Assembly: GCA_965140785.1 (NCBI GenBank)
Contig: OZ223475.1
Location: 224,001 to 288,000 of the forward strand
DNA: 64,000 bases
Direction: 5' to 3'
Source of the DNA: an uncultured Ruficoccus sp.
GTDB taxonomy: Bacteria; Verrucomicrobiota; Verrucomicrobiia; Opitutales; Cerasicoccaceae
The notes under the pieces are model-generated. The model ran no database searches. It worked only from the letters and a program-made list of their open reading frames with translations, and was not told the origin of the DNA. Shown here in pieces: positions 22,544-52,659 of the stretch (positions are counted from its first letter, which is position 1; the number at the start of each line of letters is the position of its first letter). The position numbers were made by a program, and so were the translations under genes.

Positions 22544-22635
22544 GGGACAGGCCGGGCCATTGAGGCGAACACCGCTGGGGCAGTCAGGCATTCGACAGTA
22601 TAGTATCGGAGCTTGAGGGATAGGATTAACCACAA

Positions 22636-22659
22636 GCGGGCAGACCGGAGTCTGCTCGC
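22636..22659 (-). terminator. Stem-loop downstream of the PEP-CTERM gene (weak terminator or stability hairpin)
   Basis: Minus strand GCGAGCAGAC-TCCG-GTCTGCCCGC with a cUNCGg loop; poor U-tract. Confidence 0.45.
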
Positions 22660-22702
22660 GCATGCCCCGAATGAGGTAAAAAGGGTAAGGATGAAAACGC
22701 TA

Positions 22703-23746: not shown

Positions 23747-23756
23747 GAGTTTGGCC

Positions 23757-24767: not shown

Positions 24768-24847
24768 GCGCTGGACCTGCCCTCTGGGGCAGCTGTCCGT
24801 GGATGGACGCACGAAGGGTTCGTCTTCAGGGCTTGCCGGTTCGAACT

Positions 24848-26272: not shown

Positions 26273-26302
26273 GAGTGAAAGAGGAAGCTGAAGAGTTCGG
26301 GT

Positions 26303-27514
26303 TTAACGGCAGCTGGCCTGGGTCGGGGCGGAGACATGGGCGCCCCAGGGCAGGCCAACTTCGCTCAGCAGGCAGCCCCGGCGGTGGGCTTCGATCATGG
26401 ACTCGGCCAGGCCCTTGACCTGGATGAACTCCTCGGATTTTTCGAGTCGGGATTGTATCCACTCTTCCGGTACATCTTCAATCGCCAGTGTGCGGTGTAT
26501 CCGGTCGATGAATTGAGTATGTGCGCGTGCCATTTCCAGGGTGCACACGTTGCTGGGGTGCCCGTGCAGGCACTCACAAATGTGACGCAGCATGACGAGG
26601 CGCGTGTCTTCGTAGGAGGGGAGGGTGGCGTTTTTCTGAGGTTCGCGGGTGTAGGAGAGTGAACTGTCTTCGGTGTCGTTCCAGGTGTAGCATCCGGCGG
26701 TTGTTTCGATCACAATCTCCGCGTCCATGAAGGTCTCCGCCGAGTGGCTCATGTTGACGGTCAGTTCGGCGCCGTTTCGGAGTGTGGCGCGGGCGGATAT
26801 TGTATCGAAACTTTCGATACGCTGTGCACGATAGAGGGCGGATTCGAGCCCGTCGATCTCGGCGGCTGATTCGCGGCGCTCGCCCGCCCAGAAAAGAGCC
26901 ATCTGGATGAAGTGGGCCATGGCATTATTGGCCGGCGAGTCCAGGATCGTCATTCCCTCGCTGGTGAGCTTCCCGGCCCAGTCTGTGCGCCTGTAATACT
27001 CGGTAGAGCGCGGCCACAGGGCGCAGACGCGGATGCGCTTGAGGGTGCCGAACTGGCCGGAGAGCAGCAGGTCCTTGATGTCCCAGCACGCGTCGGTGTA
27101 GGTCTTTTGAAAGCCAACAAAGAGATGCTTCCCGCAATCGTCCCTGGCCTGGCGCATGGCCTCGACCTCTTCAAGAGTGGCCGCCGGGGGCTTCTCGACC
27201 AGTACGTGCATACCTGCCTTGAACGCGGCGACGGTCATGGTGCAGTGCCAGCCGATGCCGGTGGGAATACAGCACAGGTCGATCTGTCCGGCCTCGCATG
27301 TGAGCATCTCGGTGTAGTCGCTGTAGATGCGGCACCCGATGGCGCGCAGGCGTGCGCATTTCTCCGCCTCATCGGCGGCGTTGATGACGGTAGCGGCGCA
27401 GAGCTGGACGCACCCCTCTTCGGCCAGGGCGAGGAGGGAACGGTAGTAGCAGCCGCCATAGCCGGAAACTCCGATCAGGGCGACGCGAATCGGTTTGTCA
27501 CTGGGACGGGTCAC
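26303..27514 (-). CDS. Gfo/Idh/MocA family oxidoreductase
   Basis: VALIGVSGYG Rossmann motif, HVLVEKP, YYRRTDWAG, DSPANNAMAH; GTG start inferred. Confidence 0.88.
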   Translation of the reverse strand: MTRPSDKPIRVALIGVSGYGGCYYRSLLALAEEGCVQLCAATVINAADEAEKCARLRAIGCRIYSDYTEMLTCEAGQIDLCCIPTGIGWHCTMTVAAFKAGMHVLVEKPPAATLEEVEAMRQARDDCGKHLFVGFQKTYTDACWDIKDLLLSGQFGTLKRIRVCALWPRSTEYYRRTDWAGKLTSEGMTILDSPANNAMAHFIQMALFWAGERRESAAEIDGLESALYRAQRIESFDTISARATLRNGAELTVNMSHSAETFMDAEIVIETTAGCYTWNDTEDSSLSYTREPQKNATLPSYEDTRLVMLRHICECLHGHPSNVCTLEMARAHTQFIDRIHRTLAIEDVPEEWIQSRLEKSEEFIQVKGLAESMIEAHRRGCLLSEVGLPWGAHVSAPTQASCR

Positions 27515-27569
27515 GGTTGGTACGGGAAAGTGAAATGAAACAGGTGTCGTTGCACAGGGCCGGGTCGGC

Positions 27570-30055
27570 TTAAGGCTGAGCTGGCACGTCGGCGGGCGTG
27601 TCTGCCGGCGGCTGGAAGCGGTTCGCCAGCTCAGGAACCTCCGACTGCAGGAGGGTGAGTACCCAACGGGCAATGACGACACTGCCGGCAGTCGAGAAGT
27701 GTGTGCGGTCTTCGACCTTCTCGGTCGGGCTGAAGACGAGGCTCTCCTCGGCGGTCATTTCGGAGAATTTATCGTAACTGCACTGATGCAGGTCCAGGCA
27801 GGGGACCTGCATCTCCTCCGCGACGATGCGGACCGACTCGGCATAGGGCTCGAGGCTGTCCGAGAGGGTGCCGTCCGAGTGGTAGGTGCGGCGGCAGACC
27901 GGAGTGATCAGGATGGGCTGCGCGCCCTGCTCGCGGGCCTCCTGTACGTAGCGCCTCAGGTGGTCGCGGTAGTCGGTTTCTGCTGCGCTCTCACGCTCGG
28001 GGCCTTTGCCCTTCTGGTCGTTGTGTCCGAACTGGATGAGCACCCAGTCCGGATTCAGTTCCATGGCCTTGTCCCAACGGCCCTCGCTGCGAAAGCTGCG
28101 CGAGCTGCGGCCGCCCACGGCGGTGTTCTCAACCCGGATGCCGGGGCCGGTCCAATGCTCAAGCGCCCAGCCCCAACCGGCCTGGTCTTTCTTGTCGCTC
28201 TTACCGGTCACGGTCGAGTCTCCGACCAGGGCGACGAGCGTCTGGCCGGTCTCGCGAACGCCGGCTGTGTTCAGGTCGAAGCGGGGAATCTGTGGCATGG
28301 GCTGTCCGTATTGAAGGGCGCCCGCATCGGGCGTGATGTCGTTGAAGTAACCGGGCTCGCATCCGGGAAGCTCCTCGTCGCTGAGCAGCATGGGGTCCAC
28401 TCCGCGGTTGCGGGCGGGACTGTCCACGCGCAGGGCCAAGTCGTAGTGGTCAGGATCGACGAAGCCCGCGGGCCCGTAGCCGACCCAGGTGCTGTTGGTC
28501 TCGCGTCCGGCCTCGGCGGCCTGCGCCATGCTCTGCTGCCAGGCCTCGGCGATCGAGCGTTCGGAGTCGTTGTCCCGTTCATCGTCCCAGGGCCGGGGGA
28601 AGTCCGGAGTCGCGAGGATGAATACATTTCCGTCGGTCTTCCAGTCGGGGAGGGGGAGCGGGTCTGAGGAGTGCACCCAGCGGCGGCACCAGAACAGGTT
28701 GTTAAAGTAGTGGTAGTTGGGCGTGGTCAGCGTCATGGCGAGATGGTGGTAGTTCCTGTTCACGGCCGTGTCGGAGGTGCTGGTGTTGTGGTAGACCCAG
28801 ACCTCGACATCGGGGTAAAACTGTTCGCCCTGTCCCCAGTTGCGCAGGGTCCTCCTTACTGTCGAGGAAGATGTTGCGGTAGATATACAGGGGCCCCTGC
28901 TGGGGGGCCTTGATGCGGAAGGCGCAGCGGGCGCGGATGACAATATTGTCGTGCCACTGGCCATTCACGCTGGGGCCCATCGTCTCCATGCCGTCGTCGT
29001 TCAGGTGGCGAATGAGATTGTGGTGAACCTTCAGGTCGGGGTTGGCGTCGGGGTGGGTGCCCTCCCAAGGCGGGTTGCCCACGTCGTCGATGCCATCCCA
29101 GTGGTCGTGAATGTAATTGTCGTGAATGTCGTGGCCGCCCTGGGTGTTCTTGATGGCGATGCCGACGCGGTCGTAGAAGCCGCCTACTTTCATGGCCTGC
29201 CAGTTGTCCCACGAGCCGCGGTACCAGGTGTCGGAACCGGCGTAGGGGCTGAGGCTGATGCGGTTAAAGCGCAGCTCGGCGTTCCGGGCTCCATGGTCGA
29301 GGACGATCCCGTAATCGGCCGGATCGATCACGCACCGCTCAACCATACTGTTGGCCGAGCCCTGAACAAGCACGCCAATGGCAGAGTTGCGCAACGTGAG
29401 ATTTCGCACCACGGTGAAGTCCTGGCCGTTGGTGTCCACGACCGGTTCCCGCGGGGCCACGGTCATGGTCATGTTTCGCGGGTCCAACTGGTCCTTGAAG
29501 CGTACGAGCAGCTCCTTCTCGTGTTGACGGTACATGGCCAGCGCCTTGACGCCGTTCCAGCCGGTGGAGCCGACGCCGTTGACAAAAGCGTCCTTCCACA
29601 AGATCGCGGGCATGCCTTGCTTGGGGGCGGGAGTGTCTGCCGACCCGGTGCGTTTTTCGTCCAGTGTGGTCAGTGTTTGGCCGTTCGCGGTGACTGTGAA
29701 GGGGAAGAAGTCCAGCGGGGCGCGGTAAACGCCCGGCCCGATATCGGGCGCCGGTTCCCAGGCCAAGTCAACGGGTGTGCTGCCGTCAATGATGACGCTG
29801 GGTCCGGCACCCTCCAGGACCACGGGCTGCTCCTCTGTGCCGTTGTGCTGAAATTTAACCCGCTCGCGATACACGCCGGGCTGATCCGGACGGTGTCGCC
29901 CGGACCAGCTGCGTCCAGTGCCGCTTGGATCGACGGGTAGGCTGTGCCGTTGGGAGCTTCGCCGACCAGAGGTCGGCACCGTGTGTCGGGTGAAGGCTGA
30001 GTGCCAAGATTGCGCTAGTCAGGAGGGAAAGGGTATGTTCGCGAAATAAAATCAT
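27570..30055 (-). pseudogene. Beta-helix (DUF1565-like) plus SGNH/rhamnogalacturonan-acetylesterase-like fusion broken by three 1-nt indels (pseudogene or assembly error)
   Basis: Signal peptide, PSIQAALDAAGPGDTVRI.PGVYRE, beta-helix repeats, then GDSTV..GWG..GGRSSRSF..QFGHND..DRTHF; frame changes near 29968, 29883 and 28848. Confidence 0.8.
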
Positions 30056-30591: not shown

Positions 30592-30691
30592 GTAATCAAG
30601 CTTTCAGCTTAGAGCCATTCCGATCTCCGTCTTTGTCGTGCTGCTGCGCAGGCCACGGCGTCAAAGATTAGGGGCTTGACTTATTGGCATT

Positions 30692-30711
30692 TTGCGTAAA
30701 TGTTTACGCAA
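30692..30711. promoter_or_regulatory. LacI-type operator site 1
   Basis: TTGCGTAAATGTTTACGCAA palindrome just downstream of a TTGACT -35-like box (30676). Confidence 0.75.
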
Positions 30712-30757
30712 CCTATTTGGGAGGCGAACCTTAATCGCTAACTAATGCATTGATATT

Positions 30758-33700
30758 ATGAAATTATTTTTCATGGCCTGTGGATTTGGGTTTGTTGGTG
30801 GTTGCTCAATGGCGCGTTTTATGCCGCGGATGCGTGTTGGGTTGCTTGGCCTTGTCGGGCTGGTGCTCGGCGTTTCCTGCTCAATGGGCGCAGTGAGTGT
30901 CTCTGAGATGGAAGATGGGCGGTTGCAGATTGTCATCACGGCTCCCGGGGTTGATGCCGCGCACACGCGTGTGATGATGGATATAGATGAAAACCTCGGC
31001 ACGGGTTATGGAGACGAGGGGGCGGACCTCATGATCGAAGGGGCGACGCTTTATCAATATCCGGCCGGGGCATCGGGGTGGAGTTGGAATTCGCTGGGTC
31101 CTGTCTCCAATAGCACCGAGAACGACCAGCTCACCTATACGCTTAGCGTGTCTCCTGAAGCGCGGATTTTACGGGTCTATGTGGAGAATTTTGACGATAA
31201 CTGGGAGGTGACGGGACGTTATCCCGCCGAAGGAGCAATTTCCGTGGATATGACCACGGTCCCAAAGGCCCAGTCTGAAGGAGGCCAGGACGAAGGTACC
31301 CTGAGCGGAAAGCTTTACCGCACACCCTCCGGGGGGCTGGCGGTTGTTGTTTTGGGGCAGAATCTCGACCCCGGCCGCCTTCGCGTTTTCATCAATACGG
31401 ATGAGAGCGCCACGACAGGCATGGCGCCGTTTGGTGCCGACTATCTGATCGAAGGGTTAGTGCTGTATCAGTATTCGGGATCCGGCACGGACTGGAGCTG
31501 GACGCCTCTTCGCCAGCTTACGCCCGAGACTCGGGAGGGGGGGATTCTCTACCCGGTCGAAGGCTTGAATGACGGAAATACCATCGAGTATTTGATCGAG
31601 AAAACGAATACGGACTGGGAAGTTATCGACCGCTTCCCGCAGGAGGGGACGAGGAAAATAAAAAGGTCCGATCTGAACGAATATTCTTACCAAGGGCCCG
31701 ATCGACAAGTCGGGCCTAAAAATTATCACATGGAAGAGCTTCGGACGTTTTGTGCCGCCCTCGTTGAATGTCGGATTCGATGAGCGCATGGCAAAGATGG
31801 ACTGGCAGGAGGTTCCGCTGACTCAGGCGCAGTGGGAGGCGGACGGGTTTTCCGAGCCCTTGCCCCTGGTCTTCAATCTTCAGGACGCGGAGACGGAGGA
31901 GGTCTTTGTCCTCGAACCCGATCAACTCCTTACGTCGGGCGAATGGACCCAGTGGATGGGGGAGGCCGACGGCGTGCGGTGGCGGGTGATCGGTCACGAG
32001 GATGAGCGGGGGGATATGGATCTCTATGCGCAGTTGAAAAGCGATAAAGAGCGGCTGCTGCGCTTGGGAGTCGGCGTGGAGATGCCGCTGGAGGGATGGG
32101 TGTGGCATGACGATGTCGAGTATCGCAGGCCGATCGAGGACGAGGAGGTGTACGCATACACCGGGAGTAGTCCGTATGGCCTGGACGGGGCTGTCTCCAA
32201 GTATCCGCTCGGAGTCATCAGTGATGAAAATCGTAGCCTGATTCTTGAGACCGATTTGAGCGAGCCCGTCGTCTTCAACATCGCAGCCCTCCCGCAAGAG
32301 GAGACGTTCGCGATTTATTATGACGTGGCACTCACGCCGTTGACCCGGAAATTCCCGGGCGAGGCCGTGCTGCACCTGAGCTTGCGAGCACGCACAAGCC
32401 AGGAGCAGCAGGCCTTTCGCCTGGCATTGGATGAGCTCTACGGTCGCTATCCGTCGTTGTTCGAACGGCGTCCGGACGCGGTCGGATTGTGGATGCCTTT
32501 CACGGACATCTCAAACATCCCCGATCCGCAGGACTTTGGATTCGCCTATTATGAAAAAGGGGGAGCGCTTGGTTCGGATGTCGATTTCTGCCACGAGAAC
32601 GGGGTCTTGACGCTGGTGTATACGGAGCCGTGGCTGTATTGGCTTCCCATGCCGCAGGGGATGGAGCGGACCCCGGAGTCCGCGCTGGGGCTCATGCGCA
32701 GTCTTTCCGCCAGCGGCGCGGGCCGGCCGGGCGAATTTGCTTCGGCGGGGCTACTGGGGGCGGCGCGATCGGTTGACGGCGATATTGTCATGACTTTTCA
32801 GGACGTGCCCTGGAATTCCGGGGCGCGCATGGAGGTGAGCACGGACCCGGAGTTGCCGACTCGGGACGGCGCGACGGTGAATCGGGCGATGGCGGAGTTC
32901 GCGTTCATGCGTGAGCAGATGGAACACGAAAAGGTGGATGGCATCTATCTGGACTCGCTCAGCGCGATGTTCACGATGGACTATAATCCGGCGGCGCTGG
33001 CCGTGGCCGACTATCCGGCGACCTTTACCGCCGATGTGCTCAAACCCGGACTCGCGACTCCCGTCGCCGCCTATGAATTCATCGCGGCGCTGGCTGGCTA
33101 TGCCCGGCAGGAAGGAAAGTATCTGATGGGGAATTTCCCTTGCTGGAATTTTCCGTTCTTTATGCCGTTGATCGATATTCCGGGGGAGGAGACCCACTGG
33201 TTCGGAGAGGGACGGTACGAGCGCATGCCGGATCGGGAGATGAACTACCGGCGCGCGATGTCCGGCCAGAAAGCCTGGGGATTTCTCATGAATGGGAAGT
33301 ACGATCACTTCGATCCGGAATTCGCCCGCCGCTACTTCGAGGACTGTCTGTTCTGGGCCTTTCAGCCGAGTCTCTTCAGCCACGATGCGGCGAACGATCC
33401 GTACTGGGAAAACCCGGAGTGGTACGAGCGGGACCGTCCGTTTTTCCGCCGTTACATGCCGTGGATTCAGCGGCTGGCGGCGGTGGGCTGGCGTCCGCAG
33501 GGGAGCGCTGTCGTCTCCGATGAGGAGATTCAAGTCGAGCATTTTTATGGTGACCGCGACCCGGTTCAGTTCGTTACGGTTCGAAACTCAAGTCAGACAC
33601 CGATAAGCACGTATCTGGAAGTACCGCTCTCCGGTGAGGACGCGCAGTGGGTGTGGATGAATCCGCTGGACGGGGAGGCCGGATGGATTTTTACAGATGC

Positions 33701-34928
33701 TTCGGGCATGGGCACTGTTCCTGTCTCGCTGGAGCCGGATCAGGTGCGCTTGCTGGCCCTGATGCCGAGCGGCGAAATCGCGTCCGAAATCGTGTTTTTG
33801 AAAGACTGGGCGGATGGCAAGGGGGATGCCGGTCGTTTGATCGACAAGCTGGCATCGCTTCAAGACGAACAAGAGGCGGGCTTGCTCATGGGGGTGGAAA
33901 TTTCCCAGCCCGCGCTGCGTGGTGTCGAGAATGACATCTGGGTGGGGGTAAAGAATGTCACCCCATCGGTGCTGACGCTGGCCCATCTCCGACTCGTGCC
34001 AGCCGATGGGGAAGCCCTGGAGCTGCTGGATGAGCCGGTCGAGATTACTCCGTCGCAGATGCTGGGCATCCCTGTGGAGGTCTCCGCCGGCTTCGGGCAG
34101 GATGGGGGCTTCAGCCTCGACGCCGATTTCACCGTTGAAGACGGTGGTGGCGAGCACCGTTTGAGCCAGCCCGTGACGTGGACCCTGCGTGATCCCGTTG
34201 CCATCAGCTTGACGGATCCGCATGTGATATCGATTCAGGAGCGGGCGAGTATCTCGTTGCGGGTTCGCAACCTGATGAATGCGCCGGCGACGATTACTTT
34301 TACCTGGGACGGTGATTACGGGGAGGGTGAATCTGAAGTGACCCTCAAGGCCAAGGAGGAGCGTAGGGTTTACCTGCCGGTTGTTTCCGGCGGGAGGTCG
34401 GAAGGAGCCGTTACGGTGCGGGCCGAATCGAGGGGCGTGGATCTCTTTAAATCGGTGGCCACCGTGACGTTCCTGGGAGCGCATGCCAGTGTCGTGCGGG
34501 ATAGCTCGGTGGCGGTGAGTACCAGCGGGGACTTCCCGGGGTATACTCCGCAGACGTTGCGCGACGGCGTGACCCGGCCTGGAGCCGAGATGGCTTTTAA
34601 CGAGGCCGCGTGGGCATCCGAAGACGTGCCCGGAGACACTTGGGTGCGCTTTGATTTTCCTTCCCCGATCGAAGTCAGTGAGGTGAAGCTTTACTGGAAT
34701 GAGGAAGGGGGAGTCCGCTACACCTCTCAATCCGGGGTGGTGGAGGGTGTGCGGGAAGACGGTTCCACCTGGCCGCTGCAAAACTACACCTCCGAGCAGG
34801 GGGCTGCCGTCACCACGGTTTCGTTTGATCCGGCCCGTGTGGTGGGGCTTGTCATCCGCCAACCGGACAGTCAGGGCCCTGTTTCGCGTCCCGATATTCT
34901 GTGGTTGAACGAGATCGAGGTGCACTAG
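30758..34928 (+). CDS. Large secreted multidomain putative glycoside hydrolase (two N-terminal repeats, TIM-barrel-like core, C-terminal F5/8C-like domain), split by a 1-nt frameshift
   Basis: ORFs 30758-31783 and 31752-34928 join if one T is removed from TTTT at 31748-31751; repeats DIDENLGTG..GADLMIEG / NTDESATTG..GADYLIEG; core VDGIYLDS; tail AAWASED..WVRFDF. Confidence 0.75.
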
Positions 34929-34973
34929 ACGGGGAACCTCCGAGGGGGAATCGGGGTGGCGAGTTCTGATTCT

Positions 34974-34988
34974 GTGTAAACGTTTGTC
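34974..34988. promoter_or_regulatory. LacI-type operator site 2 (degenerate, autoregulatory position)
   Basis: GTGTAAACGTTTGTC upstream of the LacI gene. Confidence 0.5.
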
Positions 34989-35062
34989 CTTTACCTTCGC
35001 CTGCTCGGCGGGCACAGTTCGTTGTCATGGCGGGGGTGCTAGTGCTCCTGTTTCAGGCAACT

Positions 35063-36076
35063 ATGGACATTCGTGAATTTTCATCATTGGTAGGGGTATC
35101 GACAGCCACCGTCTCCCGTGCGTTTTCCGGACGCGGGCGCATCAGTAAAAAGACGCAGGAGCGGATCCTCAAGGAAGCCCACAAGCACGGTTTCAGCCCG
35201 AATATTAACGCGCGTCGCCTTTCGTCCAGGCTCAGTGGTGTGATCGGCCTGTACTACACCTTCAGCGACGAGATCATATTCGACTATTACAATATGGAAC
35301 TGGCGCAGGAAATCGCCAAAACATGCGCCGAGCGCAGTATTTCCCTGCATCTAGTGTTGCGCAGCCAGTCCCGCAAAGACCTGCAATTGAACCACTTGGT
35401 GGCCGGAAAGGGCTTGGATGGCGTGATTATAGTGACAGACAGCCTGCGCAGTCTGGATGGGCTTGAGGATGTGATTCACAACTGCGCCACGGTTGTGATT
35501 TCCAACCAGATTTGGACGGATAATCCTTCGCGCGGGTTCATCCACCTGGATTTCGACAGCGGCATTGCCCAGGCAGTTACTCGTCTCGTCAGCTTGGGGC
35601 ACCGGCGGATAGGGTTCATTCGTGGCTTGATGGATGAGAGTAAGTTCGAGGCCTACGGTCGTGCCTTGAGGCAGAACGGGATCAGCCTGGACAGCGAACT
35701 CGTCACCACGGCCTCGAAGACGATACTTGACGGGCAGCAGGCTATTTCCGGTCTCCTGAAAAAGAACATCACCGCCGTTATTTGCTGTACGGATCTGCTG
35801 GCCTTCGGAGCGCTTCAAGGGGCGATCAACGAGTCCGTATCCGTGCCGGATGAACTTTCCATCGTTGGCATGGACGACCTCGCGCTGACCTCGCAGACAG
35901 CTCCCCCGCTCTCAAGCATCGGTGTGCCCCGCAATCGTATCGCCGAGGGCGCGGTGAAGATGCTCGATCAAATGCTTGATGCCCCCAAGCACAGTGAAGG
36001 GCAAAACGGTCGCTTCATGCATACGGTGAGCACCTTTTTGGTTGATCGTGCTTCGATCGCGCCTGCCCGGCTTTAG
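35063..36076 (+). CDS. LacI family transcriptional regulator
   Basis: MDIREFSSLVGVSTATVSRAF; LGHRRIGFI; VPDELSIVGMDD. Confidence 0.93.
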   Translation: MDIREFSSLVGVSTATVSRAFSGRGRISKKTQERILKEAHKHGFSPNINARRLSSRLSGVIGLYYTFSDEIIFDYYNMELAQEIAKTCAERSISLHLVLRSQSRKDLQLNHLVAGKGLDGVIIVTDSLRSLDGLEDVIHNCATVVISNQIWTDNPSRGFIHLDFDSGIAQAVTRLVSLGHRRIGFIRGLMDESKFEAYGRALRQNGISLDSELVTTASKTILDGQQAISGLLKKNITAVICCTDLLAFGALQGAINESVSVPDELSIVGMDDLALTSQTAPPLSSIGVPRNRIAEGAVKMLDQMLDAPKHSEGQNGRFMHTVSTFLVDRASIAPARL

Positions 36077-36116
36077 GCCACCTGAAGGATGGGGGAACGG
36101 GAACTTTTGCGATTTG

Positions 36117-36132
36117 GCGTAAACGGTTACGC
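36117..36132. promoter_or_regulatory. LacI-type operator site 3
   Basis: GCGTAAACGGTTACGC upstream of the oxidoreductase gene. Confidence 0.7.
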
Positions 36133-36176
36133 TTTTTGTCTTGACGCTCCTCGCACAAGCTGATTTTCATAGAGGC

Positions 36177-37295
36177 ATGAAGATTGGAGTGATTGGCATG
36201 GGCAAGCGTCTCAGCCACATGGTCAACAACTGCATGCGTGAGGCGGAGCCTGATTTGAAGGTTATCGCCGCACTCGATCCCGATGAAGATGCTGTGAGGA
36301 AAGCTCTGCCTGAGGGCGAGGCCGCCTCTGTCAAATTCGTGAAAACGATCGAGGAGCTGGTTATGTCCGGCGTGGACGCGATCGCGATCGGGACGCGGTG
36401 TAATCTGCATGCGCGGTATGCGATCGAGGTGTCCCGGACGGGGTTGCCTCTGTTTTTGGAAAAGCCGGTAGCGACGACGATGGAGGATGCCCTGGCGCTG
36501 GAAAAAGCGTTCCAGGATTCCCGCTCCGAGGTCGTGGTGAGTTTCCCGCTGCGCGCCTCTCCGCTTTGTGTGCGGGTGAAGCAGTTGCTGGAGGAGGGCG
36601 TCATCGGGATCCCGCAGCACGTAATGGCCGTGAACTATGTTCCTTACGGCGATGTTTACTTTAACTCGTGGTACCGGGACTATGGTGTGACCGGCGGCCT
36701 TTTCCTGCAAAAGGCCACCCATGATTTCGATTACCTGTCCTATTGTCTGCGCAGCCCGATTGTGCGGGTGGCCGCGATGAAGTCGTGCGGACGGGTCTAT
36801 CGGGACGCCAGTGTTGCGGATTGCGATCCCGATCCCGATTGCTATTATTATGAGCAGATCGGAACAGAGAAGACGGGGATGAACGAAGATTCCTCCAGTG
36901 CGCTGATCGAATTCGCTAACGGCACGCAGGCTGTTTACACGCAGGTCTTTTACTCCAAGCGTGGGGCGGCTGCGCGGGGGGCGACTTTTTCCGGTCACCG
37001 GGGCACGCTCAAGTTCGACTGGTACGAGAATATGGCGAAAATCGTCCATCACCAGCGTCCGTTCGAAGACACCATCAAAGTGGACTGCGAACTGAACCAT
37101 CATGGTGGAGATGGTGTGCTGGCCGAAAATTTCGTAAAAGTCGTGCGCGGAGAGGCCAGCTCGATCTCGAGCATTTGGGCAGGCCTGCAGAGCGTTTATG
37201 CGTGCTTGGCCGCCAAGGAGAGCTCAGAGCGCAATTCTTTTTGCGAGGTAAGAAAAATTGAGCAAATAAAGCATGCCGGACTTGGGATGGCATAG
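36177..37295 (+). CDS. Gfo/Idh/MocA family oxidoreductase
   Basis: MKIGVIGMG, LFLEKP, GGLFLQKATHDFD, HHGGD. Confidence 0.9.
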   Translation: MKIGVIGMGKRLSHMVNNCMREAEPDLKVIAALDPDEDAVRKALPEGEAASVKFVKTIEELVMSGVDAIAIGTRCNLHARYAIEVSRTGLPLFLEKPVATTMEDALALEKAFQDSRSEVVVSFPLRASPLCVRVKQLLEEGVIGIPQHVMAVNYVPYGDVYFNSWYRDYGVTGGLFLQKATHDFDYLSYCLRSPIVRVAAMKSCGRVYRDASVADCDPDPDCYYYEQIGTEKTGMNEDSSSALIEFANGTQAVYTQVFYSKRGAAARGATFSGHRGTLKFDWYENMAKIVHHQRPFEDTIKVDCELNHHGGDGVLAENFVKVVRGEASSISSIWAGLQSVYACLAAKESSERNSFCEVRKIEQIKHAGLGMA

Positions 37296-37311
37296 CTTTT
37301 GCTTTATGGTT

Positions 37312-37329
37312 TGCGTAAACATTTACGCA
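37312..37329. promoter_or_regulatory. LacI-type operator site 4
   Basis: TGCGTAAACATTTACGCA upstream of the PEP-CTERM/pilin/GH/SSS operon. Confidence 0.75.
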
Positions 37330-37430
37330 TCCCGATTCTGAGATGCATAAAACTGAATAAAGCGTCTATTTAACCGATAATCTAAAACATCTGTCTAACT
37401 CAAAAAATAACCAAACTGTTATCTACCATC

Positions 37431-38117
37431 ATGAAATTACACAAAGGTATCAAACTGTTAGCTGGTTTATTGGGAGCCTTCGCGCTCTGCACCTCTGCTT
37501 ATGCCGGAACGTATCGGACGATCACGATCGACGGGAATTTTGACGACTGGGATGGCATAGACCCCCTGACCTCCGAAACGACCGCAGTGGGAGATCCGGT
37601 TGACTTCGTCTCTATGTACGTCGCCAATGACGGGGATAATCTATACCTCCGTGTAGTCTACGCGTCTGATGTTGCCGTAAATGACGGAGGAACAACGATC
37701 TATATCGCGATCGATACGGATAACGACGTGAAGACCGGGTTCGATGTTTACAGTCTAGGCATCGTGGGCTCCGAGGTCGGATGGTCGAACGACTCAGGCT
37801 TCCAGCAGTCCAAAGAGTTTTTTAATACCGGTGTGACCCTCAACGACGGGCAGGCGGGTATCGCGCCCTATGCGACCACCACTACCCAGCAGGAGATGTC
37901 GATCAGCCTTTCGGCGACGTACGCGAATGACTCCAGCCCGGTCTTCCCGAACGGGACGATTGCCATCGCTTTTTACACCAGTGGAGCGACGACGGATAGT
38001 GTTCTGGGCAAGGGCGTTTATACGTTTGCCATCCCCGAGCCCGGTCATTATGCCATAGCGGTGTCGGCGTTGCTGGGAGTCGGACTATTGTTCCGCCGCC
38101 GCCGTCGCCGTTCGTAG
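37431..38117 (+). CDS. PEP-CTERM surface protein with DOMON/CBM9-like domain
   Basis: ITIDGNFDDW, VANDGDNLYLRV, IAIDTDNDVKTG; tail IPEPGHYAIAVSALLGVGLLFRRRRRRS. Confidence 0.9.
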   Translation: MKLHKGIKLLAGLLGAFALCTSAYAGTYRTITIDGNFDDWDGIDPLTSETTAVGDPVDFVSMYVANDGDNLYLRVVYASDVAVNDGGTTIYIAIDTDNDVKTGFDVYSLGIVGSEVGWSNDSGFQQSKEFFNTGVTLNDGQAGIAPYATTTTQQEMSISLSATYANDSSPVFPNGTIAIAFYTSGATTDSVLGKGVYTFAIPEPGHYAIAVSALLGVGLLFRRRRRRS

Positions 38118-38151
38118 TCAACGTTTAGATCGCAGCAAGGGCCACCCGGTT

Positions 38152-38793
38152 ATGTTAAAGCTAAAACGAAACGGGCTCAGTCTCATCGAGTTGCTGGTTG
38201 TCATCGCCGTGGTCGGAATTCTGTCCAGTATTCTGGTCACGGGCGTCAGCCATGTGAAAAACAAAAGCAACCAGATGAAAAGCCTCAGCAACGTTCGCAG
38301 TATCGGCAAAGGGGTGCATCTTTATACCCTTGAGCACGGGGAAAATCTCCCCGTGTGGCATAACTATAACATCGGCCAGTACTGGTGGCAATTGTTGCGG
38401 CCCTATGTTGGCGACGACGACCAGGTTTTCGGCAGCCCGGCTCATCCTGAGTTCGACGCGACGAATGACACGACGATAGCTCAGACGATTTCATACGGGT
38501 GGAACTTCGCGGTGATCGGGCGACATATCGGAGACCCCTCCTATGACGGCGACTATATGTTGCCCATGTATCTCTTTGATAATCCGCCGGAAACCCTGGT
38601 GTTGACGGACGGGCCCCGGTACGACTGCTGGGGCTACGTCACGACGGTACATGCGGCGGATCCGGAGCGCTACGGGGACGGCAAGGCCGTGGCCTTGTTC
38701 CTCGACGGGCATGCCGATGTGCGGGAGCAGTCTGCCTTTACCCTGGAGGATCCCTATTTCCTCCCGGAGGTTGCCATGCCCGCGATGAAATAA
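38152..38793 (+). CDS. Prepilin-type N-terminal cleavage/methylation protein (variant Y-X10-DG tail)
   Basis: GLSLIELLVVIAVVGIL; SYGWN; RYGDGKAVALFLDGHA. Confidence 0.9.
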   Translation: MLKLKRNGLSLIELLVVIAVVGILSSILVTGVSHVKNKSNQMKSLSNVRSIGKGVHLYTLEHGENLPVWHNYNIGQYWWQLLRPYVGDDDQVFGSPAHPEFDATNDTTIAQTISYGWNFAVIGRHIGDPSYDGDYMLPMYLFDNPPETLVLTDGPRYDCWGYVTTVHAADPERYGDGKAVALFLDGHADVREQSAFTLEDPYFLPEVAMPAMK

Positions 38794-38805
38794 CCTACGT
38801 TTACC

Positions 38806-40209
38806 TTGAAAATTCTACTTTACACTTGCCTCGCAGGCTTTGTGCTTGCGGCCACGGTTTCCCATGCCTCCCGTGCCTCCGATGCACGGGAGGCCTTCGG
38901 GAAAATCAAATCGTATGCCTGTTACTACGGTGAAGGAAAGCTGAAGGAGCTGGCCGGTCGCGATGCGGTTATTATCGAGACGAATAACCAGAGCCCGGAG
39001 GACATCCGCTTGCTGCAGCAAGGAGGCACGCTCGTCGTCGGTTATATCAGCATCGGCGAGGACGATGTATTGCGGGTAGGGGACGCCAAGGGACCGGGCG
39101 GGAAAGATTCCGCTTACTTTGACCGGGATAAAGACGGGCAGCCCGATAAGAACGGGGTCTGGGATTCGTACTACGCGGACTCCAGGCAACCGGCCTGGCG
39201 TAAGTACTTCATGGAAAATATCGCCAGGATGAACGATGTTTACCATGTGGATGGATTCTTTCTGGACACCGTTGATACGAGCGAACTCTATCCGGAGTCT
39301 GAGCAGGCAATGATCTCTCTGATCCGGGAGTTACGCCAGGCTTACCCGGATAGCCTCATTGTGCTCAATCGCGGTTTTCACACCGTCGCGCAACTGGCTC
39401 CGGTCATTGACGGCGTGATGTTCGAGAGCTTTACGTCCAGCTATGACTGGGCGAGCAAGGACTACATCCTGCTGACGCCGTCTTCCTGGGATTACGGGCT
39501 GGAAGTCTGGCAGGAGGTGCTCAAGCCGGCCATGGACAAATACGGCGTGGTCGTCCTCGCCCTGGATTATGCGCCCTCCGCCACTTCACCCCTGGTGCAG
39601 ACAGCGATGGACCGGGCTGTCACGTTCGGGTTCGTGCCGGAGGTCTCCTCTATTTATTTGGATACCATTTATGAGATCGGGTATGAGCCTCGGAAAAACC
39701 CGGACTATCTCACGATGTTCTGTACACCGGAGCGTTTGAGCTATGAACTGGCGGAGGCGGCCAATGGTTTTCCGAGCGGGACACGCGTCATGCCCAGCTC
39801 CTCCTACCCGGATTACGAGGTGAAGGCCGTGGTCGATGGCATCGAGGACAAGAGTACCCTCGGGTGGCGTCAGCGAGCCTGGGCTTCGCGGGAAGAGGAC
39901 GAGGAGCACTGGCTGGAGTTCACGCTGCCGCGCCCGGTGAGGGTGGACGGCCTTACGATCAGTTGGGCCAGGGACAATGGTACGCTCTATGCGACGCGGG
40001 ACTTTCGGGTCGAGGTGAAGCCGCCGGACGGCGGTGATGAGTGGGTGTGCGTCAGTACGGTCTCGGATAACCGCGAGCCCAGCAATAGTGTTCAGTTTGC
40101 TCCGATGGATGTCTCCGCCTTGCGCGTGGTCCAGGACGGGGGAGAGGGCTCACCGCTACGGCCCGACCTGATGTGGGTGGAAAAAGTCGTCCTCTCCTCG
40201 GTCGATTAA
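38806..40209 (+). CDS. Endo-alpha-1,4-polygalactosaminidase-like hydrolase (GH114/PelA-like) with C-terminal F5/8C-like domain
   Basis: YACYYG, GYISIGED, DGFFLDTVD, IVLNRGF, DGVMFESF, VLALDY; signal peptide. Confidence 0.8.
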   Translation: MKILLYTCLAGFVLAATVSHASRASDAREAFGKIKSYACYYGEGKLKELAGRDAVIIETNNQSPEDIRLLQQGGTLVVGYISIGEDDVLRVGDAKGPGGKDSAYFDRDKDGQPDKNGVWDSYYADSRQPAWRKYFMENIARMNDVYHVDGFFLDTVDTSELYPESEQAMISLIRELRQAYPDSLIVLNRGFHTVAQLAPVIDGVMFESFTSSYDWASKDYILLTPSSWDYGLEVWQEVLKPAMDKYGVVVLALDYAPSATSPLVQTAMDRAVTFGFVPEVSSIYLDTIYEIGYEPRKNPDYLTMFCTPERLSYELAEAANGFPSGTRVMPSSSYPDYEVKAVVDGIEDKSTLGWRQRAWASREEDEEHWLEFTLPRPVRVDGLTISWARDNGTLYATRDFRVEVKPPDGGDEWVCVSTVSDNREPSNSVQFAPMDVSALRVVQDGGEGSPLRPDLMWVEKVVLSSVD

Positions 40210-40233
40210 CCGGAAGGTGAACAGGATGAAGAG

Positions 40234-42225
40234 ATGAGCATCATCGATTGGGGAATCGTCACGTTACTGTTGATGGCGATGATCGGCATCGTGCTGTATT
40301 CGCGCCGGTACATGCGCGGCGTGGCGGACTATCTCGTGGCTAACCGTTGCGCCGGGCGTTATCTGCTCACCCTGTCCGAGGGGATCGCCGGGCTGGGAGC
40401 CATCACGATCGTGGGAAGCTTCGAGATCACCTATCAGGCGGGCTTTGTGCCGATCTGGTGGGGGTTCTTTCTGTCGCCGCTGGGGTTGATCATCGCGTTG
40501 TCGGGATTCGTTATTTATCGCTTTCGTCAGACGCGCTCGATGACGATGCCGCAGTTTATCGAAATGCGTTATGGGCGGTCTTTTCGTGTTTTTTGCGGCA
40601 TGCTCGCCTTCCTTTCGGGCCTGATCAACTTTGGGGTTTTTCCGGCGATCACGGCCCGTTTCTTCATCCATTTCTGCCAGTTGCCGGAAGCGTTCACGCT
40701 TCTTGGAACGCCGATAGCGACCTTTCCGGTGGTCATGGCGATTGAGCTGAGTCTGGCGTTGTTGTTCGTCTTTATGGGCGGACAGATCACGGTTCTGCTA
40801 ACGGATTTCGCGCAATCGACATTCTGCCTGCTCGCCTTCCTGGTCATCATGCTGTTCCTGCTCTGGATGTTCGATTGGCAGGACATTATCGGTGCTCTGA
40901 AAACCCGCCCGGACGGTGAGTCCATGATTCATCCTTTCAGAGCGGGGAACATGCGGGACTTCAATCTCAGCTATTACCTGATCGGCGTTTTCATGGTGGC
41001 CTATACGACGCGGGCCTGGCAGGGGAGCTCCGCCTATAACTCCTCGGCCCGCACCGCGCACGAGGCCCGCATGGCGGGGATTCTCGCCAACTGGCGCGCC
41101 ATTGCTCAGGCGATGGCCCTCTTGCTCATGCCGCTGTGCGTGTACGCCGTCCTGCACAACCCGGTTTTCAGCGGGCAGGCGACGGAGATTCTCCGTGATC
41201 TCAGTCAGTTCGCCGACCCGGTGGTGCGGCAGCAGATGACGGTGCCGGTTGGTCTCCAGCATATTCTGCCCGTGGGGATGACGGGCCTGCTGGCGGCGGT
41301 GATTCTGGCCGCAGCCGTCAGTACGGACAACACGTACATGCACTCCTGGAGCAGTATCTTTATTCAGGATGTGATCATGCCGTTTCGGAAAAAGCCGCTG
41401 GGCCAAAAACAGCACATCCGGCTTTTACGTTTCGGGCTGGTGGGCGTCGCGTTCTTCGCCTGGTGCTTCAGTGTGATTTTTCCGCTGCGGGATTACATCT
41501 ACATGTTTTTTGACATCACCGGAGCCATCTTTCTGGGCGGGGCCGGCTCTGTCATCATCGGCGGGTTGTACTGGAAGCGGGGGACGACGGCGGGCGCCTG
41601 GGCCGCCATGCTCGTGGGGGCCGTGCTCTCGGTGGGCGGGCTCTGCGTCCAGTCTTATTGGACATCCATTTCGCCCACGCTGATTCACTGGTTCCCGCAG
41701 TGGACATATCTGCAAAGCGTGGCCGATGACTTTCCCTATAACGGGCGTCACATGATGTTCTTTGCCATGTTGTGCGCGATTTTTTCCTACGTCGGCGTTT
41801 CGCTGCTCCAAAATTACGTGCATAATATGGACAAGCTGCTTCATCGCGGCGCATACCGCCGGGCGGATGATCCATCCGTCGATAAGCCGCTCAAATCCTG
41901 GCGTAGCCTGGGGATGGGGGCGGAATTCACCTTTTGGGACAAGGTGATTTACATCAGTACGATTGTCTGGGTGCTGGGATGGTGGTGCGTGTTTCTGATC
42001 GGCAGTGCGGTCAATCTGGTGGCCGACATTGGCGAGGACGCGTGGATAGCCTTCTGGAAGATCAATCTGTGGATTTCCGTGCTGCTCGCCGTTTTTACCT
42101 CCCTGTGGTTTATCGCGGGCGGCATTCGGGATGTGCGACAGATGTTTCACGACCTGCGGCATGCGAGGGTGGACGAGGACGATGATGGCCGGGTCATCGA
42201 TGGTGAAAACGCCGATGACCGGTGA
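40234..42225 (+). CDS. Sodium:solute symporter (SSS) family transporter
   Basis: DYLVANR, FIEMRYG, LPVGMTGLLAAVILAAAVST, GGLYWKRGT; many TM helices. Confidence 0.92.
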   Translation: MSIIDWGIVTLLLMAMIGIVLYSRRYMRGVADYLVANRCAGRYLLTLSEGIAGLGAITIVGSFEITYQAGFVPIWWGFFLSPLGLIIALSGFVIYRFRQTRSMTMPQFIEMRYGRSFRVFCGMLAFLSGLINFGVFPAITARFFIHFCQLPEAFTLLGTPIATFPVVMAIELSLALLFVFMGGQITVLLTDFAQSTFCLLAFLVIMLFLLWMFDWQDIIGALKTRPDGESMIHPFRAGNMRDFNLSYYLIGVFMVAYTTRAWQGSSAYNSSARTAHEARMAGILANWRAIAQAMALLLMPLCVYAVLHNPVFSGQATEILRDLSQFADPVVRQQMTVPVGLQHILPVGMTGLLAAVILAAAVSTDNTYMHSWSSIFIQDVIMPFRKKPLGQKQHIRLLRFGLVGVAFFAWCFSVIFPLRDYIYMFFDITGAIFLGGAGSVIIGGLYWKRGTTAGAWAAMLVGAVLSVGGLCVQSYWTSISPTLIHWFPQWTYLQSVADDFPYNGRHMMFFAMLCAIFSYVGVSLLQNYVHNMDKLLHRGAYRRADDPSVDKPLKSWRSLGMGAEFTFWDKVIYISTIVWVLGWWCVFLIGSAVNLVADIGEDAWIAFWKINLWISVLLAVFTSLWFIAGGIRDVRQMFHDLRHARVDEDDDGRVIDGENADDR

Positions 42226-52523: not shown

Positions 52524-52659
52524 GTCCTCGGTCGAAATTATTGCGACCCTTTTGAAATAACCCTTCAACTTGCAAATGCGAATCCAAAAGTAACACTTTC
52601 CTAACTTTTGAAGGAGTTCGATGTTGAGTGTAGTATGCCGACAAGCTATAATCAAGCCC

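Follow-up and report, generated by a model that had tools for sequence, protein, structure and literature searches.

A LacI-controlled locus of an uncultured Ruficoccus sp. with a PelA-like hydrolase and a probable role in amino-sugar polymer catabolism

A locus with secreted enzymes, an importer and its own repressor

Which polymer is served by a cluster that joins secreted glycosidases to a sugar importer and a repressor of its own? The question is raised by positions 30676..42225 of a 64,000-nt stretch of DNA (the window) on contig OZ223475.1 of an uncultured Ruficoccus sp., a marine-type Verrucomicrobium (assembly GCA_965140785.1). Four transcription units, with one LacI repressor gene among them, lie there on the same strand, and on the 5' side of each stands the same palindrome, in one case as a variant that is conserved; they encode two enzymes with signal peptides, a surface protein, a pseudopilin, an SSS importer and a cytoplasmic oxidoreductase. 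The gene list of the initial annotation (LacI, Gfo/Idh/MocA oxidoreductase, PEP-CTERM-tailed protein, prepilin-type protein, GH114/PelA-like hydrolase with F5/8-C domain, and SSS) is present in full (Table 1). The presence of a transporter, a repressor and secreted enzymes in one locus points to a catabolic context. In our reading the cluster is under local regulation and serves to break down an extracellular polymer, for which alpha-linked GalNAc/GalN of the Pel/galactosaminogalactan type is the likeliest candidate; we give this reading a probability of roughly 0.55. At the level of substrate class, an N-acetylhexosamine- or hexosamine-rich polymer is most likely, as judged from indirect evidence.

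Table 1. Features of the locus, in positions of the window
Feature	Position	Strand	Details
O1 operator, GCGTAAATGTTTACGC	30694..30709		~50-110 nt upstream of giant gene; 1 mismatch
Giant glycosidase, 5' piece	30758..31783	+	signal peptide and two ~120-aa repeat domains; 59% identity to P0003 residues 1-310
TTTT run with one extra T	31748..31751	+	shifts giant-gene frame; three relatives one base shorter here
Giant gene, 3' piece	31752..34928	+	69% identity to P0003 residues 311-1367
O2 variant operator	34972..34993		core 34974-34989, GTGTAAACGTTTGTCC, then TTTAC; upstream of lacI; 4 mismatches
LacI-family repressor	35027..36076	+	PF00356, PF13377, PF00532
O3 operator, GCGTAAACGGTTACGC	36117..36132		upstream of oxidoreductase gene; 1 mismatch
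Cytoplasmic Gfo/Idh/MocA NAD(P)-dependent sugar oxidoreductase	36141..37295	+	PF01408, PF22725, PF02894
O4 operator, GCGTAAACATTTACGC	37313..37328		upstream of PEP-CTERM/pilin/PelA-like/SSS operon; 1 mismatch
Secreted CBM9/DOMON-like beta-sandwich protein, PEP-CTERM-type tail	37431..38117	+	tail PEPGHY, hydrophobic stretch, RRRRRRS
Prepilin-type (pseudopilin-like) protein	38152..38793	+	N-terminal methylation motif; PF07963, TIGR02532
Secreted PelA-like (GH166-type) hydrolase	38806..40209	+	domain residues ~31-289, then CBM32; PF03537 33.9 bits, cut-off 27
Sodium:solute symporter (SSS) family importer, 663 aa	40234..42225	+	PF00474, TIGR00813

Operators and the LacI repressor

The strong operators are 16-bp near-perfect palindromes with half-sites GCGTAAAC and GTTTACGC, each one mismatch away from the perfect even palindrome GCGTAAACGTTTACGC. 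A search of the window with the pattern GCGTAAACNTTTACGC, allowing up to two mismatches, returned six matches, that is, three sites on both strands, where 0.11 matches are expected by chance and none of 100 shuffles reached six; for three sites at one mismatch the expectation is 0.11-0.15. At the same threshold only O1, O3 and O4 are found in the whole 4.36-Mb genome (4,361,983 bases), and the reversed control pattern has no match in it. O2 differs at four positions, a threshold at which the window contains eight sites, so that this site is not significant when taken alone. It lies inside an island of ~22 nt that is nearly invariant, within an intergenic region that is poorly conserved around it (5/5 aligned genomes). 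The initial annotation had four operator copies, one before every unit: three strong sites and a conserved site before lacI are indeed there, but the fourth is a variant and no copy, and while the position 36117 was right, 30692 and 37312 were off by one or two bases (actual 30694 and 37313).

An identical or near-identical palindrome to O1 precedes the orthologous gene in six relatives' loci (L016, L017, L018, L019, L021 and L022). O3 is likewise kept upstream of the oxidoreductase orthologue (L016, L017 with 4 mismatches, L018, L019, L020 and L022), and for O4 a 3-mismatch site is found at the equivalent place in L016. These two features, operators confined to this locus and their recurrence in front of the orthologous genes, support the view that the locus is a self-contained LacI regulon. 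The architecture resembles that of LacI/GalR-type sugar regulons, in that the repressor joins an HTH LacI domain to a sensor domain of the periplasmic-binding-protein-like kind, and 16-bp even palindromes with a central CG stand before every unit, the repressor gene included; unlike in those, the site before lacI is here a conserved asymmetric variant. Some relatives' loci differ from this one in having a second LacI paralogue (~46% identity) upstream of the PEP-CTERM operon. Translation of lacI likely starts at the ATGGACAT at 35063, a start codon that relatives have kept. In the absence of inducer LacI would sit on the operators, from which a breakdown product of the polymer would release it.

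The oxidoreductase, which likely starts at the ATG at 36177, reached no NCBIfam equivalog, and its best PDB match is a scyllo-inositol/L-glucose dehydrogenase (E 2e-12). It would take the first cytoplasmic step in this genome, probably an oxidation.

A giant glycosidase in two reading frames

By comparison with its relatives, in which it is uninterrupted (1367-1391 aa), the giant gene is a single gene of ~1,370 aa split into two ORFs by a one-base insertion at 31748-31751; the relatives' genes start at the position matching the ATG at 30821. The "giant hydrolase" first described stands as a GH-fold protein with an operator upstream, but in the assembly it is two ORFs of a frameshifted gene. 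If the frameshift is real, the system could be decaying in the source strain, the catalytic part of the giant protein being not made or, with the signal peptide on the separated 5' piece, possibly not exported. We consider this possible but doubtful; it concerns function only and does not clash with any reading of the substrate. Besides the extra base itself, placed in a TTTT run in comparison with three relatives, it would be in keeping with the public gene call, which is the 3' piece alone (P0001, 1046 aa), with the patchiness of the locus in the genus (present in one of four other same-genus genomes), and with an exosortase gene that is also apparently split between two frames in the assembly. 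An assembly error fits too, since homopolymer indels are common and would explain the second split gene equally well, and both giant-gene pieces are otherwise intact, with 1,399 codons and no further stops. The sole read-level data, one contig of run X1 (30 letters different over 707 bases, depth 3.54), have one base fewer at 31748 and an intact frame but, as a single low-depth contig from a differing strain, are silent on the frame of the source strain. With a real frameshift, the PelA-like enzyme may be the only one on which the strain can rely.

The 5' piece matched no Pfam or NCBIfam family. The 3' piece, modelled by AlphaFold2 (pLDDT 88.6), comprises, in residues counted from 31788, a beta-sandwich (1-200), a (beta/alpha)8 barrel (~225-570), a second beta-sandwich (580-660), Ig-like domains (700-895) and a CBM32 (898-1046), the last reaching 26 bits as an F5/8-C domain, under the 28.2 cut-off. 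Since the barrel has no match to any Pfam, NCBIfam or PDB sequence family and the model shows a GH fold, the earlier proposal of a candidate new GH family is upheld as such. In the model D389, which follows strand 4, and E467/E468, which follow strand 6, are candidate catalytic residues. Among structural alignments of the giant protein, the one with the Flavonifractor GH36 alpha-galactosaminidase is longest (Z 18.3, 539 residues, rmsd 5.2), the Foldseek list is headed by GH101 endo-alpha-GalNAc-ases and GH36 enzymes, and Melibiase_C follows the barrel in 2/25 distant family members. The giant protein shares with the GH36 enzyme of Flavonifractor plautii (9ayu, 9awt, 8x1b) and with GH101, GH129 and GH27 alpha-GalNAc-ases or alpha-galactosidases a (beta/alpha)8 barrel placed between an N-terminal and a C-terminal beta-sandwich, and these architectures align to the model over 536-540 residues (Z 16.4-18.3), but sequence identity is only 8-9%, other TIM-barrel GH families come within ~1-2 Z units, and the N-terminal repeats, Ig-like domains and CBM32 are extra. 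With this GH27/36/101-like three-domain architecture, the giant protein would trim polymer fragments to small sugars.

The barrel is matched nearly as well by GH29, GH66, GH13, GH27 and GH42 (Z 15-17.5), so the fold fixes neither linkage nor sugar. This near-equality leaves some room for the LacI-controlled catabolism of another amino-sugar glycan, such as an exopolysaccharide of bacteria or algae that contains GlcNAc/GlcN, or a mixed heteropolymer whose side chains are alpha-GalNAc, the PelA-like enzyme having diverged in specificity. On balance we hold that alternative to be the less likely one.

The PelA-like hydrolase

The best solved relative of this enzyme is PelA (5tcb, E 2.9e-19 with the single sequence). 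With the family profile PelA is best by far (1.7e-40), followed by GH191 chains (8e-12 to 1e-10), whereas GH114-labelled chains reach 0.003-0.004; the weak match to a GH168 endo-1,3-fucanase (E 5e-4) would favour another glycan. All 28 sequences of the alignment keep D154 and E207, which correspond to D160 and E218 of PelA, the residues changed in a published hydrolase-dead mutant (available part of PMC12022489). The enzyme, initially called GH114/PelA-like, is thus PelA-like with its Asp/Glu pair kept, and closest to the PelA domain of GH166 rather than to GH114. PelA is the only characterised member of GH166 (PMC12054363, as far as its available text goes), so that specificity is unreadable from membership in that family. 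The same text gives GH114, GH135, GH166 and GH191 as the four characterised families of the superfamily, all endo-alpha-1,4-galactosaminidases, which argues against another glycan.

The likeness to PelA of Pseudomonas aeruginosa (5tcb, 9cgy) extends across the whole barrel and both catalytic residues. Unlike PelA, the predicted enzyme is free-standing and secreted, has a C-terminal CBM32 and no deacetylase domain, and shares its transcription unit with a transporter gene controlled by a sugar repressor, in a genome where PelG was not found. It shares the retaining TIM-barrel superfamily with the GH114 endo-alpha-1,4-polygalactosaminidase of Pseudomonas sp. 881 and with GH191 (TM1410, Env-GH191), although the sequence link to these is much weaker than to PelA. 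The catabolic enzyme of strain 881 shows that action on foreign polygalactosamine is possible, and for it and the GH191 enzymes the available part of PMC12054363 mentions no regulon, transporter or partner glycosidase. By means of D154 and E207, the enzyme encoded here would cut the polymer internally.

Carbohydrate-binding modules, surface proteins and transport

The only part that the giant and PelA-like enzymes have in common is the CBM32 at their C-termini (hhalign probability 99.6%). Among solved structures this module is closest to those that bind chitosan (E 1.6e-4 for the PelA-like profile, E 0.013 for that of the giant protein, Z 17.9-18.5), and since chitosan is a GlcN polymer this would also suit a glycan of another kind. 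The model of the PEP-CTERM protein (pLDDT 70.3) matches Sas6 (Z 10.9) and CBM9 (Z 10.3) in fold; NCBIfam PEP-CTERM matches are weak and under their cut-offs, and exosortase genes are present in the genome. A fusion protein in one relative's locus (L033) combines the CBM9-like domain of the PEP-CTERM protein (hhalign probability 99.5%, E 8e-23) with a PelA-like catalytic domain (99.5%, E 2e-23). The CBM9-like domain would keep the polymer at the cell surface, perhaps aided by the pseudopilin. Import of the small sugars released by the enzymes would fall to the SSS transporter, which among solved structures is closest to sodium/glucose or galactose cotransporters (E 1e-6 to 4e-5).

PEP-CTERM proteins are commonly tied to exopolysaccharide production, which would agree with the PelA-like enzyme and its neighbours processing the cell's own exopolysaccharide, in biosynthesis or remodelling like PelA, Sph3 and Ega3, with no feeding on a foreign polymer. 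Such a role is very improbable here even though the well-studied members of these galactosaminidase families all act in biosynthetic systems (PMC12054363, available part), given that a PelG (PF16933) profile search of the genome (90.85% complete) had no match, the locus and its flanks yielded no glycosyltransferase or export gene, the PelA-like gene shares an operon with the SSS importer under a LacI-type sugar repressor, and sugar-salvage genes are joined to the regulon in relatives. The lack of a PelG match agrees with the earlier claim that no Pel synthesis genes are present and, with the operon shared with the transporter, argues for a catabolic rather than a biosynthetic role.

Loci of relatives and the fate of the sugar

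What relatives conserve as a core is the giant protein together with the SSS transporter and the PEP-CTERM protein. Among 23 loci with relatives of the giant protein, 8 of them under 13 kb long, only 4 have the PelA-like gene, and of 300 genomes sampled 3 have it; one family genome (G010) lacks this gene but retains the remainder of the locus. By this distribution the PelA-like enzyme is accessory and the giant protein plus SSS transporter form the core. The proposal of a catabolic Pel/galactosaminogalactan-type pathway keeps its regulon, transporter, secreted enzymes and lack of a PelG match, but its PelA-like gene is accessory, and a core that mostly lacks that gene speaks for another glycan.

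In 6 of the 23 loci, genes for a NahK-like kinase, an NTP-transferase and a GalE-type epimerase (TIGR01179, E 1.5e-60) are found, the kinase matching PDB 4ocj at E 1.8e-82. In L017, L018 and L022 they are divergent from the oxidoreductase gene, with the operator in the spacer between, and in L032 PIG-L deacetylase and NagB-type genes adjoin them. Together with the shared CBM32, the domain fusion in L033 and the lack of a PelG match, these genes lend indirect support to a GalNAc/GalN-type substrate. NahK-type kinases act on GlcNAc as well as GalNAc, and 4ocj is itself named N-acetylhexosamine 1-kinase, so that by itself the kinase does not point to GalNAc in particular and is compatible with another glycan; the 4-epimerase that accompanies it would not be needed for GlcNAc. 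In the relatives, kinase, nucleotidyltransferase and 4-epimerase would turn GalNAc into UDP-GlcNAc. The source genome contains no NahK-like kinase detectable with the query used, no AgaS-family match, and a NagA-like match of 161 bits, under the 225.65-bit cut-off, so that no GalNAc/GalN route to central metabolism is visible in it. In Bifidobacterium, kinase, uridylyltransferase and epimerase genes serve the GNB/LNB pathway (NahK, uridylyltransferase, GalE-type epimerase). The relatives' loci resemble it in having a close NahK homologue, a nucleotidyltransferase and an epimerase, here at the operator, and differ in having no phosphorylase and no ABC transporter, the kinase set being a feature of relatives that the query used did not find in the source genome.

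Gene content of the locus

The genes listed at this locus by the initial annotation (LacI repressor, oxidoreductase, PEP-CTERM protein, pilin, GH114/PelA-like hydrolase and SSS importer) are borne out by Pfam and NCBIfam, with the PEP-CTERM protein being a putative one, suggested by the C-terminal tail seen in its translation. For the latter protein the NCBIfam PEP-CTERM models matched below their cut-offs only and Pfam PF07589 gave no match; an exosortase (PF09721) is found above the cut-off in the genome. We take the genes of the PEP-CTERM protein, pilin, hydrolase and importer to form one operon, because the gaps between them are only 12-34 nt. The oxidoreductase, which is the sole cytoplasmic enzyme of the regulon in this genome, has generic inositol/sugar dehydrogenases as its best PDB matches and reaches no NCBIfam equivalog; a GH109-type NAD-dependent alpha-GalNAc-ase identity was discarded, as no GH109 chain is found among its 38 PDB matches (E<=0.001).

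Predicted genes of the locus, in window coordinates, with the matches that identify them
Feature	Position	Strand	Evidence
LacI-family repressor	35027-36076	+	PF00356 E 1.5e-10, PF13377 E 2e-23
Gfo/Idh/MocA oxidoreductase	36141-37295	+	Pfam/NCBIfam
PEP-CTERM-type protein	37431-38117	+	C-terminal PEPGHY, hydrophobic stretch, RRRRRRS in translation
Prepilin-type protein	38152-38793	+	Pfam/NCBIfam
GH114-model hydrolase with F5/8-C domain	38806-40209	+	PF03537 33.9 bits vs 27-bit cut-off, E 2.5e-8
SSS transporter	40234-42225	+	PF00474 62.8 bits vs 22.8-bit cut-off

The secreted hydrolase resembles PelA

The best solved relative of the PelA-like enzyme found by phmmer is the hydrolase domain of PelA (5tcb, E 2.9e-19). 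A profile built from 28 homologues and searched against the PDB matched PelA at 1.7e-40, GH191 chains (9ep5, TM1410) at 8e-12 to 1e-10, a GH168 fucanase at 5e-4 and the GH114-labelled chains 9jos/9jom at 0.003-0.004. Between GH114 and GH166, the two assignments that the initial annotation had wished to see separated, this comparison favours PelA/GH166 and argues against GH114 proper (Ega3-like). The PF03537 match of the enzyme is the only one in the genome, and comes from a model that spans several CAZy families and cannot separate GH114 from GH166/GH191. Further, D154 and E207 align with D160 and E218 of PelA, the two positions at which the published hydrolase-dead enzyme is mutated (PMC12022489), and both are invariant in the alignment of the 28-homologue family (A2). 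With a homology to PelA stronger than that to the sister families and the Asp/Glu pair kept, the enzyme is predicted to be a GH166 member. According to PMC12054363, the four families of this superfamily that have been characterised all consist of retaining endo-alpha-1,4-galactosaminidases; in GH166, PelA is the single characterised member. The earlier statement that Pel synthesis genes are lacking also holds for PelG (PF16933), a marker of the PelD-G synthase/export genes: a search of the genome (90.85% complete) did not find it, and neither the locus nor its flanks showed a glycosyltransferase.

The giant protein has a glycosidase fold

The AlphaFold2 model of the giant protein (pLDDT 88.6) comprises a beta-sandwich, a (beta/alpha)8 barrel, another beta-sandwich, Ig-like domains and a CBM32. 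Foldseek matches are led by GH101 endo-alpha-GalNAc-ases, GH36 alpha-galactosidases, a Flavonifractor GH36 alpha-galactosaminidase and GH31 enzymes, and the longest VIA-align match is the Flavonifractor alpha-galactosaminidase 9ayu_A (Z 18.3 over 539 residues, rmsd 5.2), with 9awt_A at Z 16.4 and 5opq_A at Z 16.1. The barrels of GH13, GH66, GH27, GH29 and GH42 reach Z 15-17.5 and, because those of GH13, GH66 and GH29 score similarly, the fold assigns no family: the model would describe a TIM-barrel glycosidase with a GH27/36/101-like layout, and nothing more specific. The barrel falls into no Pfam or NCBIfam family, a profile of 33 homologues retrieved no PDB chain for it, and none of 25 distant members of the family carries a GH catalytic family (Melibiase_C is found in two of them). 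The proposal that this protein is a candidate new GH family survives the tests against Pfam, NCBIfam and the PDB. Look-alikes of the barrel in the ESM Atlas, which serve as leads only, are hypothetical clusters, GH123_N (32% of members), DUF6259, GH66 and Melibiase_C.

The domain family has 930 representatives at E<=0.001, 615 at <=1e-10 and 268 at <=1e-30; of 300 further genomes sampled from the phylum, 35 contain the domain, and the PelA-like protein is found in three of 300. Counting residues in the 3' piece of the gene from 31788, D389 is invariant and lies after strand 4 (VDGIYLDS), while E467 and E468, at least 90% conserved, lie after strand 6 (DIPGEE). We infer that D389 and E467/E468 could be the catalytic pair, a placement of Asp and Glu that would parallel that of PelA. 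A common ancestry of the two catalytic domains was rejected, since hhalign of both family alignments matched the C-terminal CBM32 only.

Homologues of the giant protein measure 1,200-1,390 aa and span the whole 3' ORF. Residues 1-310 of an intact relative of 1367 aa (P0003) align with the 341-aa ORF at 30758-31783, and the 1058-aa ORF continues from residue 311. DNA comparison shows that the TTTT run at 31748-31751 has one base more than in three relatives, and the gene is a single frame across both parts in four genomes of the family. The "giant hydrolase" of the initial annotation is therefore one large gene in the relatives but is split by the extra base into two ORFs in the window's assembly. 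Read evidence consisted of Logan contigs from two metagenome runs of one study, with one bridging contig; this contig (depth 3.54), whose strain is a different one with 30 differences over 707 bases, is without one base at 31748. It shows an intact near relative and says nothing on the correctness of the window's assembly. Should the frameshift be real, the catalytic part would stay unexported, because the signal peptide is on the 5' piece. A second apparently frameshifted gene is the exosortase PF09721 match (G000:C26:28887-29671 in the window's own genome, regions L051 and L052), which is split at about 29222-29228, with no obvious homopolymer at the junction.

Binding modules

The only module common to both enzymes is the CBM32 (hhalign probability 99.6%, 25% identity). 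That of the PelA-like enzyme scores 39.1 bits with PF00754 against a cut-off of 28.2; that of the giant protein stays below it with 26 bits, and its fold matches CBM32 modules at Z 17.9-18.5. Among solved structures this CBM32 comes nearest, both in sequence (E 1.6e-4 and 0.013) and in fold (Z 17.9-18.5), to the chitosan-binding modules found in a Paenibacillus chitosanase.

A search of PDB sequences with the PEP-CTERM protein returned nothing meaningful. Its domain models as a beta-sandwich with moderate confidence (pLDDT 70.3), and over a background near Z 7 the fold resembles an ethylbenzene dehydrogenase subunit (Z 11.2), the starch-adherence protein Sas6 (10.9), a CBM9 (10.3) and a putative carbohydrate-binding protein (9.8). 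In one relative (L033), a protein of 1108 aa joins a PelA-like catalytic domain (hhalign 99.5%, E 2e-23) to the domain of the PEP-CTERM protein (99.5%, E 8e-23), and because of this fusion we tie the latter domain to the substrate of the PelA-like enzyme. The domain seems to be a carbohydrate-binding module that has not been classified.

The fusion protein (L033:17152-20478, in a record titled Rariglobus sp. MAG) also has fn3 and at least one copy of the PEP-CTERM-protein domain, three by eye. A 666-aa protein of another relative (L027:5042-7042), with no Pfam match, shows by eye three tandem copies of this domain. A kinship between the domain and the N-terminal repeats of the giant protein was discarded (best BLASTP E 0.12, not significant).

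Putative operators of the LacI repressor

A search of the window for GCGTAAACNTTTACGC with up to 2 mismatches found three sites, at 30694, 36117 and 37313, each on both strands; the expected count is 0.11, and none of 100 shuffles reached the observed one. These sites are each 1 mismatch away from an even 16-bp palindrome, GCGTAAAC followed by GTTTACGC. At up to 2 mismatches these three are the only sites of the 4.36-Mb genome; a reversed control pattern had none. The site at 34974, GTGTAAACGTTTGTCC, has 4 mismatches and on its own means little, because the window holds 8 sites at that threshold. In the alignment of the spacers between the giant gene and lacI from five genomes it falls within a nearly invariant island of about 22 nt (TGyGTAArCGTTTGTCCTTTAC), surrounded by poorly conserved spacer, and we take it as a probably genuine variant operator preceding the repressor's own gene. 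Three of the four palindrome copies claimed initially are thus close to exact, and the fourth is a conserved variant. The same alignment would put the true start of lacI at the conserved ATGGACAT at 35063.

The combination of an HTH, a periplasmic-binding-protein-like effector domain and palindromic putative operators identifies the predicted regulator as a LacI/GalR family member. Among loci of relatives, the palindrome precedes the giant gene in L016, L017, L018, L019 and L022 at 1-2 mismatches and in L021 at 3, the oxidoreductase gene in L016, L018, L019, L020 and L022 at 2 mismatches and in L017 at 4, and the PEP-CTERM gene in L016 at 3.

A second LacI paralogue, about 46% identical, lies between the oxidoreductase gene and the PEP-CTERM operon in L017 (12494-13510), and at the same position in L018, L019, L020, L022, L036 and L037. 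Because the relatives with a second LacI have no copy of the palindrome before the PEP-CTERM operon, a regulon split between two repressors is suggested in them.

The site at 36117 and the T run behind it (36116-36133) were scored as an intrinsic-terminator-like hairpin, 40 nt past the lacI stop, and this operator might double as a terminator. A scan of the locus for sigma-70 promoters and terminators was uninformative (6 promoter-like sites vs 5.0 expected).

Gene neighbourhoods in relatives

Orthologues of the PelA-like enzyme were found in 5 of 15 other genomes of the family sample, a sixth match (in G010) being to the CBM32 of the giant protein only. The gene order of the window (giant gene, LacI, oxidoreductase, PEP-CTERM, pilin, hydrolase, SSS) is kept in four of these five; in G011 the giant gene is located elsewhere, and G010 keeps the whole locus without the hydrolase. 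We also collected 23 loci of giant-protein relatives in named public genomes; 8 of these loci span less than 13 kb. Homologues of the PEP-CTERM protein are found in 14 of the 23, the SSS importer in 10 (in 6 it directly follows the giant gene, and most of these 6 are titled Kiritimatiellia/Kiritimatiellae), the PelA-like gene in 4, and a trio of kinase, nucleotidyltransferase and epimerase in 6.

The kinase of the trio is close to N-acetylhexosamine 1-kinase 4ocj (E 1.8e-82) and the epimerase is GalE-like (E 1.5e-60). In L017, L018 and L022 the trio diverges from the oxidoreductase gene across an operator-bearing spacer, and next to it in L032 are genes for a PIG-L deacetylase and a NagB-type isomerase. 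With this kinase as the query the window's genome gave no match; an AgaS-family gene was not found in it either, and a NagA-like match stayed below the cut-off.

Some relatives carry additional large proteins. In records titled Cerasicoccus (L017:259-2694, L024, L035), a protein of about 740-811 aa is encoded upstream of the giant gene, with the palindrome in front of it at L017:368 (1 mismatch). The 811-aa protein of L017 has no PDB relative and a weak fn3 match only; its one match in the window's genome is to 42 codons within the 5' piece of the giant gene, and a short stretch of it resembles the N-terminal repeat of the giant protein. In loci titled Kiritimatiellia/Kiritimatiellae (L031:1914-3764, L043:1433-3931), DUF4832 proteins accompany the pair of giant gene and SSS, together with further large CBM32-bearing proteins of 1356 and 801 aa that belong to no known family.

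Substrate and significance

The initial annotation read the locus as one that degrades alpha-1,4-GalN/GalNAc polymers. Its catabolic nature is well supported, and several independent lines give indirect support for an amino-sugar substrate. The trio of the relatives and their PIG-L and NagB genes point to a putative N-acetylhexosamine product, and from the epimerase we infer the galacto series. The assignment to an alpha-1,4-GalN/GalNAc polymer comes mainly from homology to PelA and from the epimerase, and we give it a probability of about 0.55.

In the biofilm matrix of bacteria and fungi, Pel and galactosaminogalactan are major cationic polymers. The known hydrolases of these polymers belong almost all to the producers' own synthesis machinery (PMC12054363). 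In a wider reading, which we offer tentatively and think rather unlikely to hold in full, the giant protein would found a new GH family (~930 sequence clusters) releasing GalN/GalNAc from alpha-linked polygalactosamine, and would constitute, with the GH166-CBM32 enzyme, the CBM9-like PEP-CTERM surface lectin, the pseudopilin and the SSS importer, the first described dedicated system of the PVC group (Planctomycetota-Verrucomicrobiota-Chlamydiota) that feeds on a Pel/galactosaminogalactan-type matrix. Its architecture would then be unrelated to that of the Sus-type loci of Bacteroidota. No description of such a catabolic locus was found in the openly accessible papers searched. If true, a free-living bacterium would sense, bind, cut, import and burn the matrix polymer, being a sink for matrix carbon and nitrogen and a source of secreted, stand-alone matrix-degrading enzymes that carry their own binding modules. 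The catalytic domain of the giant protein, which defines a family without a sequence-family assignment, is directly testable, as is the domain of the PEP-CTERM protein.

Other features of the window

A neighbouring sugar locus (23751-29979) has its own LacI at 23751-24767 and also encodes an MFS_2 transporter, a 459-aa Gfo/Idh/MocA protein, a GDSL esterase and a beta-helix protein on the minus strand; the palindrome is absent from it even when up to 3 mismatches are allowed. A 1233-aa ORF on the minus strand (18962-22663) matches no Pfam family at E<=0.001. A second pair of PEP-CTERM-motif protein (with CBM_4_9) and prepilin-type protein is found at 52621-55269. Counted roughly by motif, the whole genome has 77 PEP-CTERM-like and 43 pilin-like ORFs, with 8 adjacent same-strand pairs, the PEP-CTERM-like member coming first in 7 of them, and the pair looks like a recurring module of the sugar loci of this organism.
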